64,000 nt of DNA, from assembly GCA_951406725.2 (NCBI GenBank), contig OX597840.1:36642001-36706000 (forward strand), given 5' to 3'. Below the pieces are notes generated by a model. The model was not told where the DNA came from. It did not search any database and worked only from the letters and a program-made list of their open reading frames with translations. The position numbers were made by a program, and so were the translations under genes. This document shows, one piece after another, positions 6,366 through 61,555 of the stretch. Origin of the DNA: Octopus vulgaris (taxonomy: Eukaryota). The number at the start of each line of letters is the position of its first letter. Within the stretch, counting starts at the first letter, position 1.

Positions 6366-6421
<56 letters not shown>

Positions 6422-6458
6422 CAATGAAAGAATGGAGTTGAACGACGAATTCACAAAA

Positions 6459-6557
6459 TTCCTTTATTTTCGACATATGTTTCGAAGGTTGCATATTCCT
6501 AATTTCGAAGGAATAAAGGGTGCATTATGCCGCCTTCTCATCAGGAAAAACAAGGAA
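6459..6557 (-). ncRNA. Type I hammerhead ribozyme with full consensus core (probably PLE pLTR-derived)
   Basis: Minus strand reads ttccttgtttttc CTGATGA gaagg...ccttc GAAA catatg TC gaaaataaaggaa: stem I 11/13 pairs, long stem II, palindromic stem III, GUC triplet. Confidence 0.85.
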
Positions 6558-6669
6558 CTTATATATATGTATATATATATATATCCTAGAAACAGCTGTA
6601 AGACCTTCTATCTATAAATGCTCTAATATCTATACAGCATTGGTTTTTATCTCATTACGCAAAAGATTC

Positions 6670-9136: not shown

Positions 9137-9206
9137 GCCATGATAAAACTCAGAGTTTCGAATGACGGGGCGGAAACCCACGCCGCCATCTCTTCAGTTA
9201 ACCGGC
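9137..9206 (-). ncRNA. Type I hammerhead ribozyme (GUU triplet) in a PLE-like terminal repeat island (about 9106-9220)
   Basis: Minus strand reads gccggttaa CTGAAGA gatggcgg...ccgtcattc GAAA ctctgag TT ttatcatggc; stem I imperfect; flanked by (TA)n. Confidence 0.65.
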
Positions 9207-16943: not shown

Positions 16944-16974
16944 CTGAAGATCGCAGTGGCATGAAACTCGAGTC
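16944..16974 (+). ncRNA. Hammerhead core lacking a stem I
   Basis: CTGAAGA tcgcagtggcat GAAA ctcgag TC, palindromic stem III and GUC; flanks do not pair. Confidence 0.4.
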
Positions 16975-20519: not shown

Positions 20520-21081
20520 AAATCAGTGGTGCCTTCCCTAGATGTAGAACACGTGGTACGTGATCGACAAATATCAAGGAATGATGTTTGTAGAGGCCAC
20601 AGCCCGTGGAGAACTAGCTCGAAGTTTTAGGAAAGCTCTGAAGGAGGCTAAACTCAACGTTGAAAAGCCAGGAAGCTCCATCAGATCACAACTATGTAGG
20701 ATGTGCGCCTTTGAGAATACCACATGAACCAATGAGAACTGCATGGTATGTAGGATTAGCCCTGGCATTAACTGTAGAACTAGAAACGTAGTCTACAACA
20801 TAAGGTGCATAGAGGGCGCTTGTACAGACAAGAACATGATATACATAAGTGAGACATTGGGAAGCATTGCGGAGAGACTAATTGACCATTTGAGACAATA
20901 TGACGGCAAAAAAAACAATCCTCCATACTCTACCAACATGTCAAAGGTCAATAATGGCACACTGGGTCAACTTGATGTCCGCATTTTATGCAAACACACG
21001 AAAGACCCACTACTCAGGCAAGTACAAGAGTACGTCCTCATAAGCGAAACATCCCCAGTACTAAATAAGAAATATACATAG
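20520..21081 (+). mobile_element. Penelope-like element remnant: linker Zn-knuckle plus GIY-YIG endonuclease
   Basis: MFVEATARGELARSF..EKPGSSIRSQL..CMVC..NCRTRNVVYNIRC..IYISET..ERLIDH..RQVQEYVLI..PVLN. Confidence 0.85.
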
Positions 21082-21810: not shown

Positions 21811-21857
21811 AAAATCTGTTACTCTGAGTTTCTCGTTGCCGTTCATCAGACAGTTTT
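21811..21857 (-). ncRNA. Minimal type I hammerhead ribozyme (mirror copy)
   Basis: Reverse complement of 22352-22398. Confidence 0.7.
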
Positions 21858-22351: not shown

Positions 22352-22398
22352 AAAACTGTCTGATGAACGGCAACGAGAAACTCAGAGTAACAGATTTT
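22352..22398 (+). ncRNA. Minimal type I hammerhead ribozyme
   Basis: aaaactgt CTGATGA a-cg-GCAA-cg-a GAAA ctcagag TA acagatttt: stem I ctgt/acag, GNRA-capped stem II, palindromic stem III, GUA triplet. Confidence 0.72.
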
Positions 22399-24184: not shown

Positions 24185-27100
24185 CTTTTTTGTGCATGGC
24201 ACAAAAAATTATTGTTCAGCAGCTGACCTGGCTACAAGCACAAAGCTGGAACTACCTCCACATAAGGCCACCTCCAACAGATGCAGGATGGCCACCACAG
24301 ACACCAACACCAACACACACACCACAAAAATATTTCTACTGAATGTAGGAGGGCTGCTGCGCGGAAACTGTAAAAGAAAATTTCATTCCTGAGAGACCTT
24401 GTGACATGCAATCAAGCTATATGCATGGCACTCACAGAAACGCATCTTGAACCCGATATAGGTGATGCAGAAATACACATGCCGCAATATGCAGTCATAC
24501 GCACAGATAGAAAAGGGAGGAGCCATGGTGGAGTTGCAATGTACATCCGAGATGACTTCACGCCCCATGTCCTGCGGTCATATTCAAACTCAGTATGTGA
24601 AACTCAAATTGTACACATAAGACAACTGAATATCGTCATATGCACTACATATCGCCCACCAGATGCCCCAAAACACTCAGGCATGTTTGAAGACTGCCTA
24701 ACAAAAATAGGGGAAGTCCTCACCAACCTTGAACAGCACAACAGTGTATTCTTCATGGGTGACTTTAACCTCCCCAATGTGGAATGGCCTGGGGGGCAGA
24801 TGCTCCCAGGGATGACACACCATCAGCAGGCACAGGTGGAGTCCCTGCTCCATCTCACAAATGCCTCTTTCATGGAGCAAATAGTTCTGCAACCAACAAG
24901 GGCAGGTAATATACTGGATCTCTGCTTCACAAACAATATGGATATTATCCATAATGTTAATGTGATGCCGACAATGATCTCGGATCACAACATAATAGAG
25001 CTGTCTATGTATGGAACAAAAGCCCCCGCAGACACACAGCCTATACGAAGCACCCACCATCTCTCCAACTTAAACTTTCATAAAGCCAAGTGGAAGTTGA
25101 TTGAGAAAGAGATCCTCAAACAGGATTGTCCTGAATGTCTCTCCACACCGGACATAAACATGAAACACAAACACTTCATGTCCATAATACAAGCCATATG
25201 TGACAAATATGTCCCAGTGTGCAGGGCCAGCACACACAAGAACAAAAACAGGATCCCTAGAGAAAGGAGGATTCTTATGAGACGACGGACAAGGATTGCA
25301 AACCGCCTGAGCAAGCACACCAAAAGTGGTGAGGAGTCTCGGCTCGAAAGAATGCAAATGGAAACTGAGAAAAGTCTACATCAGTCCCATGAAAAGGAGA
25401 GAGCAGATAAAGAAGCTTGGGTAATATAAAATATAAAATCAAACCCTAAAGCTTTCTTTAAGTTTGCCAAAGAGACAGCCACAGTGCACCAGAGAATAGG
25501 ACCTCTCTTCCAAAAAGATGGCTCTCTCACAGGAAATCCCACGAGGATAAGTGAAATACTGAACGAACAGTTCGAAAGTGTGTTCACTACACCTCTAGGA
25601 CACAGGCAAGTAAACAACCCAGAAGAATTCTTTGCCACTTTACCTGCGGCCAAAGAGACAAAAATTGAGTACATCAACATCGAAGATGATGATATCACAC
25701 TAGCCATTGAAGAGATTGACACAAACCCCGCTGCTGGACCTGATGGATTCCCAGCGATCCTTCTCAAATCGTGCAAACGAGCCCTTGCAAAACCGCTACA
25801 GCTTCTTTTTCAGAGCTTTCTTGCAAGTGGTAAGCTCCTAGTCAAATTGAAAGAGGGGGGTAATATGCCCTATCCATAAGGGAGGTAGCAGAGCAGATGC
25901 TAAAAATTATAGGCCTATCTCTCTGACCTCACACATCATCAAAGTCATGGAACGAATAGTCCGTAAGAAACTAATCATGTTCCTTGAAGAAAATGACTTG
26001 CTGTCTGACACCCAGCATGGATTTCGACCAGGTAGAGGCTGCCTAACACAGCTCCTGCAACACTATGACTGGGTGTTGAAACAGCTACTAAATGGCTCAA
26101 ATGTGGATGTAATATATCTCGACTTTGCAAAAGCCTTTGATAAAGTCGACCATGGTATGATCTGTCACAAACTGCGTGGTCTCGGCATAGGCGGGAAACT
26201 TGGAGAGTGGCTGCACAACTTCCTAAAAGACAGAAAACAGGCAGTTGTGAGCAATGGAGCCACCTCCAAGGAAACGCAAATAACAAGCGGTGTCCCACAG
26301 GGCACTGTCTTGGGGCCACTGATGTTCATAGTGGCCCTTTCAGACATGCCTTCAGTTGCTACGATGACCACCCTTGCTAGCTATGCAGATGACACAAAAG
26401 TCTCCCACGCAATACAAAACCCTGAAAATATTGCGCATCTGCAACATGAGCTGGACACAATATACAGGTGGGCTGAGGACAACAACATGCAGTTTAATGC
26501 AGGTAAGTTCCAGGCCCTGCGCTATTGGCACACAAAGGTAAATGACGTGAAGACTGGATACACTGGCCCAGGAAGAATTGCAATCCCTGAGTCAAAATCA
26601 GTGCGTGACCTGGGCATTGACATGAGCAATGATGCATCTTTCCAAATGCCTATTGCTAATCTGGTGATAAAATGCAGACGGCTAGCTGGATGGATTCTCC
26701 GAACTTTCAGAACAAGAGAGAAGGAGACACTGATGGTCCTATGGAAAACATTCGTCCTCAGCCGCTTGGACTACTGCTCCCAACTTTGATCACCACACAA
26801 TATAAAACAAACAGCAGAACTCGAAGCAATTCAGAGAAGCTACACAAAGAAAATCGTCTCAATGCAAAATATCAGCTACTGGGAAAGACTGAAGGTATTA
26901 AACCTCTTCTCCCTAAAGCGGAGGCGGGAGAGATATGCAGTGATATACATCTGGAAAATCCTGGAGGGTCTTGTCCCAAACTTTGGCATTCAAAGTTACT
27001 CCAACCGCAGAACGGGGCGCCGCTGCGTGGTGCCAAGGATTCCAACATCACCATCAAAATACAGGTCCAGATACTGCAACAGCTTGGGTTTCAGAGGACC

Positions 27101-27376
27101 ACAGCTCTTTAACATCCTCCCTAAATGCCTGAGAGACTTACATGGTGTGGATGTGGGTTTCTTTAAAACTAAACTGGATCTCTTCTTGTTGGGAATCCCA
27201 GATGAACCTACCTCACGACAGGAGACGCGGATGCGGGCAGCAGCATCGAACTCCCTTGTTGATCAAGTGCCACGTATCAGAGGTGGATTCACAAACTAGT
27301 GTAGCTCATTCAGCGGTGGTGCCCCAGCATGGCCGCGGCCTTCGGGCTAAAACATTTTTAAGGATTTAAGGATTTA
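24185..27376 (+). mobile_element. CR1-group LINE, 5'-truncated, with nearly complete ORF2
   Basis: APE endonuclease (LTETHL, YRPP, MGDFNLP, LDLCF, SDH), RT (QHGFR, YLDFAKAFDKV, GVPQGTVLGP, YADD), CR1-type C-terminus (LDYCSQL, LKRRR), 3' stem-loop and (aaggattt)n tail. Confidence 0.95.
24329..27299 (+). pseudogene. Disabled LINE ORF2 (endonuclease-reverse transcriptase)
   Basis: Frameshifts near 24380 and 25860 (G run) and in-frame stops at 25427-25429 and 26787-26789 link track ORFs 24401, 25484, 25947 and 26862. Confidence 0.9.
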
Positions 27377-28194: not shown

Positions 28195-30195
<2,001 letters not shown>

Positions 30196-52666: not shown

Positions 52667-53260
52667 TCAGGTTATCCCATATGTTCTGTCCGAATTTTGA
52701 ATAAAGAAAACAAGTGATCAAATGTTATATTTAATTGAAATTTAATCATCAATGTACTTTCCTGATTATCTATGACTTCCTTCCATCTATTTACAAGCTG
52801 TTTAATCCCATCAATGTAAAACTCTTTTGGTTTCAAAGTGAAGAACTCTGAAGTGTCAGTTTCGACCCCTTCCTGACTTGTGAAAGTTATATCCCCTAAG
52901 TGTTTCTGTAAACTACGAAACAACTGGTAGTCTGAAGGAGCAAGATCGGGAGAATAAGTTGAATGAGGAAATTTTTCCCAACCAAGCCTTTCGATCTTCT
53001 GTGATGTGATCTTTGCAGTCTGGGGTCGCGCATTGTCCTGATGAAACATCACTCCTTTTCGATTCACTAAAGCGGGGCTCTTTTTCTTAAAAGCTTGGTT
53101 CAAACGCTCTAATTGCTGACAGTAGACTTGAGCATTGATTGTTGCATTAGGTGCAAATGATTCAAAGTGAATTACTCTTTGCAATCCTGCCAGATAGAGA
53201 GAAGAACCATTTTACCACGAAGTTCCCTTCTCAGTTGTGGTTGAGATTTTTCTCTTTTAC
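52667..53260 (-). mobile_element. Mariner transposon 3' end (transposase C-terminus plus one TIR)
   Basis: FHQDNARPQTAK and YSPDLAPSDYQLFRSL (DD34D); terminus TA|tcaggttatccc at 52665-52680. Confidence 0.92.
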
Positions 53261-57258: not shown

Positions 57259-57344
57259 TGCAGCTGAAGATAGTGCTAAATTTAAATTGATGCAATGATT
57301 ACATTGTTCAATTAAATAGAGCCACTTGAAACGGTCGTACTGCA
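57259..57344 (+). ncRNA. Type I hammerhead ribozyme with very long stem II
   Basis: tgcag CTGAAGA t-agtg...aattga-tgcaatg-atta-cattgt-tcaatt...cact-t GAAA cggtcg TA ctgca; perfect 5-bp stem I, GUA triplet. Confidence 0.75.
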
Positions 57345-60110: not shown

Positions 60111-60333
60111 ATATATTAAAAATGGGGAAGGCCGTTTTATGAGACTACCCAAAGTTTCCCGTCCGAAAAGGTTTTAGCGTTATGGCGTATCGTCAGTTCC
60201 CCAAAACATGTTGGCCCATAACTTTAAGTGGTCAAGGGCCAGCAAGTTTTGGGGATCTGACTAAAGCTAAACATTTTATGCGCGGGAAACCTAAGAGAAT
60301 CCCATAAACCCAACCTTCCCCAGTTTTAATATA
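60111..60333. mobile_element. Fold-back MITE with TA flanks
   Basis: TIR atattaaaaatggggaagg / ccttccccagttttaatat; inner pair ccccaaaacatgttggccc / gggccagcaagttttgggg. Confidence 0.78.
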
Positions 60334-61508: not shown

Positions 61509-61555
61509 GACACCTGATGAAGGCTGGAAGGGTGTATTAGCCGAAACGTTGTGTT
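61509..61555 (+). ncRNA. Minimal PLE-type hammerhead ribozyme
   Basis: gacac CTGATGA a-ggctgg...ttagcc GAAA cg TT gtgtt; followed by a tail with (tgtaaataa) repeats to about 61640. Confidence 0.75.

Follow-up and report, generated by a model that had tools for sequence, protein, structure and literature searches.

A hammerhead motif with an extended stem II in a probable Penelope element end of Octopus vulgaris

The hammerhead motif and its surroundings

The window—the whole stretch of 64 kb of Octopus vulgaris DNA analysed here—carries on its minus strand a motif that is, judged by its sequence, a real and complete hammerhead (Table 1). As the initial annotation had read it, all core nucleotides are present: CUGAUGA, GAAA, and C17 were each located on the minus strand, stem I comprises 13 bp with two mismatches, which are adjacent, a G-C pair opens stem II (GAAGG/CCUUC), and the predicted cut falls where that annotation had set it. 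A strict type I descriptor matches once in the 64-kb window and in none of 60 block-wise dinucleotide shuffles. The fold of the motif has a z of −2.38, with 5 of 200 shuffles equally stable. Core (CUGANGA/GAAA/UH), three helices, and an open stem I are those of a type I hammerhead. The canonical Schistosoma-like form of this type, with a 4-bp helix II and a loop 1–loop 2 contact, is not what is found here: the helix has 12 bp and the distal stem I is unconserved. The Rfam hammerhead models gave no match to the motif at the gathering score or at E ≤ 10, which is likely due to the long arm.

Table 1 Features at the hammerhead locus (positions within the window)
Feature	Position	Strand	Remark
(TA)22 target tract at the 3' end of the element	6375..6418	.	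microsatellite
Family A element end (pLTR piece), 5'-truncated	6419..6562	-	from −90 to about +53, counted from the cut
Hammerhead stem I, 3' arm	6459..6471	-	from sequence
Predicted cut after GUC (C17 = 6472)	6471..6472	-	from sequence and hammerhead rules
Palindromic stem III ACAUAUGU	6473..6480	-	predicted 8-bp duplex joining two copies
Core box GAAA	6480..6483	-	strict descriptor match
Extended stem II domain, 54 nt	6484..6537	-	12-bp helix (6537-6526 with 6495-6484), internal loop, apical hairpin
Core box CUGAUGA (C3-A9)	6538..6544	-	invariant in alignment A2 save position 7
Hammerhead stem I, 5' arm	6545..6557	-	proximal 5 bp conserved across subfamilies
Short impure TA run between two independent insertions	6563..6585	.	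from sequence
Family C hammerhead, 3' half, cut off inside stem II	6586..6669	+	686 candidates in genome

The island between TA tracts that had been described around the motif measures 144 bp, with (TA)22 on one flank and a short impure TA run on the other. The half core noticed beyond it (6589–6600) is real and belongs to a separate repeat family, family C; it lies on the opposite strand and is hence not in the same RNA as the window hammerhead. The family C relatives shown (L099–L109) carry CCGATGA in 6 of 11 cases and CTGATGA in 1 of 11, and the former might be a shared core variant.

From a typical family copy (L008), the window copy differs at 6517, 6489, 6452, and 6422. The G-to-A change at 6489 is private to it and breaks pair 6 of the 12-bp helix. 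The copy begins at −90 and has no inverted partner. It bears neither a start site nor a partner copy and is probably an ordinary dead retrotransposon fragment and inert. In contigs of a guessed RNA kind, the family sequence is covered, and the unique flank of the window copy is uncovered in both X1 and X2. The proposal that stem II serves as an ADAR site gains no support, as the sole A>G difference in presumed-RNA contigs is also present in two large runs of unrecorded kind.

Further hammerheads populate the window. A complete one of another family (9147–9197, minus strand) has a 31-nt stem II and a GUU triplet, ends at (TA)n, and has 1,948 candidates in the genome; a second long-armed one, again of another family (57264–57339, plus strand), bears a 57-nt arm and a stem I of 6 bp. 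Two identical short-armed hammerheads form an inverted pair (21820–21849, minus strand, and 22360–22389, plus strand), upstream of which an open frame that looks GIY-YIG-like by eye and has no Pfam match (20728–21081, plus strand) may be a Penelope-type remnant. Additional candidates lie at 16944–16974 and 61514–61555 on the plus strand and at 60146–60196 on the minus strand. The window also holds a LINE with apurinic endonuclease and RT, split into several frames (24374–27299, plus strand), a Mariner-type transposase fragment (52672–53211, minus strand; Pfam Transposase_1), and a 2-kb (AT)n tract of ~1,000 units (28199–30193); the host genome is rich in microsatellites.

The repeat family, its coding copies, and their ends

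The island belongs to a dispersed family, family A, which it matches at 91–98% (40 of 2,407 first-look candidates scored). A 29-nt family anchor has 1,210 exact matches in the genome and a 34-nt anchor in stem II has 513, with 0 for the control in both cases; taking exact anchor matches as the measure, the family has at least 1,210 copies. Walking upstream from the island leads through a 3' UTR into an ORF for RT that carries GIY-YIG at its C terminus; the hammerhead follows this ORF by 541–574 nt at the 13 family A loci that yielded both. The Penelope-type origin implied by the initial annotation is thus borne out by the longer copies. One of them, L064, has a frameshifted start followed by 832 open codons; it begins with the same ~150-nt tail that is found 3' of the hammerhead in other copies. 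Among 30 copies sampled at the ORF start, 16 extend upstream through the hammerhead and none begins at the cut. A tandem array (G000:C20:23330712-23354624) consists of six family-related units, spaced alternately by ~3.16 and 3.72 kb, followed by one inverted unit. The linkage of the RT–GIY-YIG ORF to a hammerhead, together with pLTR, partial tandems, an inverted 5' copy, and an optional tail, is characteristic of Penelope elements. A MITE reading of the inverted pairs fails, as their arms are unequal and run on into the RT ORF; a non-LTR retrozyme identity is likewise out, given the solo copy, the coding master, and the lack of short head-to-tail tandem repeats.

The element protein has 440 homologues—one named homologue being from Argonauta hians—and bears the motifs DKT, YRDD, CxxC, and CxH. 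DKT stands in place of DKG (QSDKT in L064), as in 104 of 120 homologues, with DKG in 1. As in the Hydra clade, the C-terminal endonuclease is devoid of CCHH and carries CxxC and CxH around E and N. At the place homologous to the N-terminal RWK site, family A reads RIRWL, against RWK or RWR in 102 of 120 homologues. Of 87 homologues that have an endonuclease, 85 carry the CxCX5C linker, which is absent from the seven family A and two family B copies examined. L064:1244-3739 (minus strand) and L061–L065, L073, and L086 encode a linker-less protein with an Asn-rich insert, and family copies still end in (TA)n. Pfam returned no RT match for the element ORF or for two relatives, and solved structures gave no match for the element ORF. 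Compared by eye, the published protein of Hydra-1_Obim has the identical motif order. On motifs and this by-eye comparison, family A would be a derived lineage of Hydra-like elements without the linker.

The 3' ends were located in two samples of 30 copies each, with the anchor in stem II for the first sample and upstream for the second. They fall into two clusters, ~50–60 and ~190–205 nt after the cut, positions being corrected for a 5-nt insertion in the reference copy. These ends adjoin (TA)n in 27/30 and 28/30 copies, over a background of 10–14%—the (TA)n insertion of the Hydra clade. An equivalent count for family B (29/29) was dropped, because a TA run formed the end of that query.

For the 5' ends, 93 copies were anchored downstream of the cut. 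Of these, 88 extend past the cut for more than 5 nt, and 5 have their 5' end within 5 nt of it. Genome-wide, 11 matches start at the cut, preceded by three mismatches, compared with ~1,210 copies, and a control at −7 gave 2, the two patterns being unequal; a pile-up of 5' ends at the cut is hence weak at best. An inverted copy adjoins 52 of 80 mapped 5' junctions. Read-through as well as 3' and 5' ends fit copying of uncut RNA by internal RT initiation, as in the anole element (PMC11167929), and family A copies may well have been made in this way.

A cluster of 5' ends at −149 to −154 comprises 17 of the 93 copies where ~2 are expected, one locus being counted twice, and 7 of these 17 join TA directly. 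Position −152 is likely the transcription start site. Inr and DPE are consensus motifs, the latter with its position at +28. An Inr/DPE reading of −152 was set aside as no evidence: TCATTA is one base off consensus and the DPE-like word lies at +27. A rival to the transcription start is that −152 may be the DNA nick site of the element's own endonuclease, as the cluster starts at ATT, the motif nicked by the anole endonuclease. For Penelope, an internal promoter is supported by PMC2377424. A further cluster at −41 to −45 (11 of 93, at the apical hairpin), considered as a sign of snap-back function, was rejected: ~7 are expected, because junctions that fall within a 20-nt palindrome are mapped to its edge, and two of the loci enter the count twice.

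The core is intact in 27/30 and 26/30 family A copies. Whether the core is conserved over its flanks among paralogues, the check that the initial annotation had named, depends on the sample: in the 93 copies anchored downstream of the cut, non-CpG differences amount to 1.4% in the core and 5.1% in the 5' flank—a comparison in which changes common to a subfamily are counted repeatedly and the flank value may be raised by alignment edges—and in the upstream-anchored sample to 1.2% and 2.1% (p = 0.4), which is not significant. This pattern would suit selection in master copies and neutral decay afterwards.

The long arm and the predicted pairing of two copies

The stem II domain was aligned over 24 relatives chosen from 37 listed, leaving out near-duplicates and one chimeric copy. 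In its 12-bp helix, 89.5% of cells are paired, and double changes occur at 7 of the 12 pairs—the compensatory changes that had been sought among genomic copies. Slid controls reach 36–51% over the whole structure. In a shuffle control, the number of double-changed pairs was not beyond chance (319/500); the sequences are also related to one another. The initial annotation was right on the length of the stem II extension, while its pairings tgca/tgca (77%) and tattcct/aggaata (67%) give way to the better paired 12-bp helix with GCAUA/UAUGC. The stem I–II tertiary contact that it envisaged lacks support: the distal stem I differs from one subfamily to another, and the contiguous stem I has 3–7 bp in 80 of 98 sampled motifs. 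A poly(A) signal in the long arm was also rejected, as only 5 of 31 families have A(A/U)UAAA at 20–32 nt before the cut.

The long stem II is not particular to the window locus; most cores counted across this genome share the design. With a 42–66-nt spacer, the core pattern has 33,699 matches (reversed control 447), and with an 11–41-nt spacer 12,472 (control 346); both require an 8-nt stem III and an intact core, and arms are counted only to 66 nt, so that these are lower bounds. Descriptors that limit stem II to short lengths would miss most hammerheads here. The first 100 matches listed gave 98 distinct motifs in 31 sequence families; these 98 motifs, like the 93 copies above, are related, so that counts overstate independent events. 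Among the long-armed families, only A and B are tied to an ORF. One locus (L179, G000:C1:5011305-5012441) has three identical long-armed hammerheads in tandem with 534-bp spacing, a retrozyme-like arrangement. A literature search, with subscription papers thinly covered, returned no paper on long-armed or octopus-wide hammerheads. Penelope hammerheads with a larger helix II, of 7–8 bp, are known already (PMC4209133); what appears to be new at the family level is the combination of an extended, covarying arm with a ribozyme that is likely dimeric.

The inner two bases of stem III, left free in the search pattern, are Watson–Crick partners in 79 of the 98 motifs, as U-A, A-U, G-C, and C-G, the remainder being mostly G-U. 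As adjacent bases cannot pair within one strand, this covariation points to pairing between strands. An unconstrained cofold of two window copies yields a double hammerhead (−64.8 vs 2 × −28.7 kcal/mol), and the active monomer makes up 0.8% of the ensemble of the window copy. Because the 8-nt stem III stays palindromic by compensatory changes and two copies are predicted to fold best as a double hammerhead, cleavage is likely dimeric. PMC4209133 describes Penelope hammerheads as slow and dimer-dependent, and dimer cleavage is likewise described for them in PMC6765202.

Our preferred reading, which we hold to be probable, is that the locus is the truncated end of a Hydra-clade Penelope element in a TA microsatellite, whose hammerhead is predicted to cut only as a pair joined by stem III. 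The analysis shows family membership, the upstream RT–GIY-YIG ORF, two fixed 3' ends, TA targets, and inverted partners, as well as the covariation of helix II and of the palindrome. An active element would be transcribed from ~152 nt upstream of the cut, and its enzyme would nick TA DNA. Reverse transcription would start ~50–60 or 200–205 nt downstream of the cut, copy through the uncut ribozyme, and mostly stop early; transcripts of tandem units with two ribozymes would be cleaved into single units. Selection in master lineages would maintain the 54-nt arm, most likely as a putative site at which a protein of the element itself binds and gates cleavage.

More tentatively, this may extend to the whole class of long-armed Penelope hammerheads of the octopus, which would be a distinct one that Rfam misses, with more than 33,000 copies in dozens of families. 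It is conceivable, if doubtful, that stem II (54–60 nt) docks the RT, holds the ribozyme uncut as a template, and later licenses pairwise cleavage, with one young linker-less lineage targeting (TA)n.

Alternatively, the long arm might have no function of its own and be slack that goes back to a single ancestor, is tolerated, and has multiplied along with successful families. The coexistence of short-armed families (the 12,472 matches) and an upper arm that varies freely (6.6% differences, 75% paired) speak for this, against which stand the double changes at 7 of 12 helix pairs over ~20% RT divergence, a fold of the arm more stable than that of shuffled sequences (z < −2 for 62 of the 98 motifs), and arm lengths of 53–61 nt in 80 of 98 motifs despite unrelated sequences, though in only ~18 of 31 families. 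Taken together, slack is a possible explanation but a doubtful one.

The ribozyme may also be a self-limiting brake, by which abundant transcripts pair, cut, and lose the cap or the 3' end, the cut RNA never being a template; we regard this as rather unlikely. It would account for the scarcity of matches starting at the cut, for the lack of such starts among the 30 ORF-start copies, and for ribozyme mutants that still insert in vitro (PMC11167929). On the other side, 11 starts against 2 at the −7 control leave a small excess at the cut, and a tandem array with 3.2–3.7-kb spacing is what re-ligated circles would yield; such circles restore the junction and would thus also read as uncut.

That the ribozyme cuts efficiently as a monomer, its arm stabilizing the fold or docking on stem I in place of the loop–loop contact, is improbable. 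Stem III can form 2 bp and a tetraloop, as in active invertebrate retrozyme hammerheads, and hammerheads of this kind can cut as monomers (PMC7229834); the monomer fold has well-formed stems I and II (pair probabilities 0.86–0.95), and nearest-neighbour models leave out core and tertiary energy. Yet the covariation of the innermost "loop" bases is explained only by between-strand pairing, the distal stem I is unconserved, and efficient cutting would destroy the uncut templates recorded by 88 of 93 copies. That the host has co-opted the window copy, be it as an editing site or as a ribozyme with a cis-regulatory role, is highly improbable: its core is intact, but so are most family cores, as expected for a young family, and its private change breaks a helix pair and is almost absent from presumed-RNA contigs (12 of 9,667 depth units in X1).

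For the preferred reading of a Penelope end cut in pairs, the covarying palindrome variants support obligatory pairing and the copy ends indicate uncut templates. This bears on the role of hammerheads in Penelope-like elements, which is termed unclear in PMC8557442. Long and short arms in one genome constitute a natural experiment that makes a comparison possible, and the linker-less lineage provides a test of the proposed role of the cysteine linker in (TA)n targeting.

Comparison with known systems

The closest relatives are those of the Hydra clade, including Hydra-1_Obim of Octopus bimaculoides (Craig et al. 2021, PMC8557442). They share with family A a single ORF with RT followed by GIY-YIG, DKT, CxxC and CxH around E and N without CCHH, (TA)n targets, a type I hammerhead near the 3' end with a palindromic stem III, and an inverted truncated copy at the 5' end. 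The stem II domain of family A is longer than this minimal design, as the initial annotation had noted: 54 nt against 12–26 nt in 26 Hydra rows of File S2. Stem III has 8 nt, in the clade mostly 7–8 with a central odd base. Family A further differs by RWL, the missing CxCX5C linker, and the Asn-rich insert (RWK and a CxCX5C linker in the clade), and by a unit of ~3.5 kb with a tail of ~150 nt (below 3 kb and 30–40 nt). Its hammerhead sequence is unlike that of Hydra-1_Obim. Stem II domains of ~50 nt are listed in File S2 for PLE-X1_sMoe and PLE-X1_sTam of spike moss, flagged there as non-canonical structure; these are two cases only, from endonuclease-less, rDNA-targeting plant elements of another clade.

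The minimal metazoan Penelope hammerheads (Cervera and de la Pena 2014, PMC4209133) resemble family A in being type I, in their pLTRs, weak palindromic helix III, and larger-than-usual helix II, and in occurring mostly as solo truncated copies and in opposite-strand pairs. Their helix II has 6–8 bp—the supplementary alignments may show longer ones—whereas family A has 12 bp, an internal loop, and a hairpin, and it is without their bulged base after A9. The ~46,000 cores here compare with up to ~9,000 in that source, and PMC7229834 gives 126,247 hammerheads for axolotl. Animal non-LTR retrozymes (PMC7229834; bioRxiv 10.64898/2026.07.22.740005) offer a comparison in type I fold, dimer-enhanced cleavage, and origin from Penelope ends. 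They are, however, tandem repeats of 150–450 bp, while the window copy is solo and family A has a protein-coding master.

For the copying process, the nearest parallel is PAc, a Poseidon element of Anolis carolinensis, for which internal RT initiation, an uncut template, and protein-assisted cleavage are described (Frangieh et al. 2024, PMC11167929). Like family A, it has two internal RT starts 3' of the hammerhead that define the tail, AT-rich targets, and uncut RNA as template. It belongs to the Poseidon clade, is cut inside the ORF, and has a short tail, whereas the cut of family A lies ~280 nt before the ATG.
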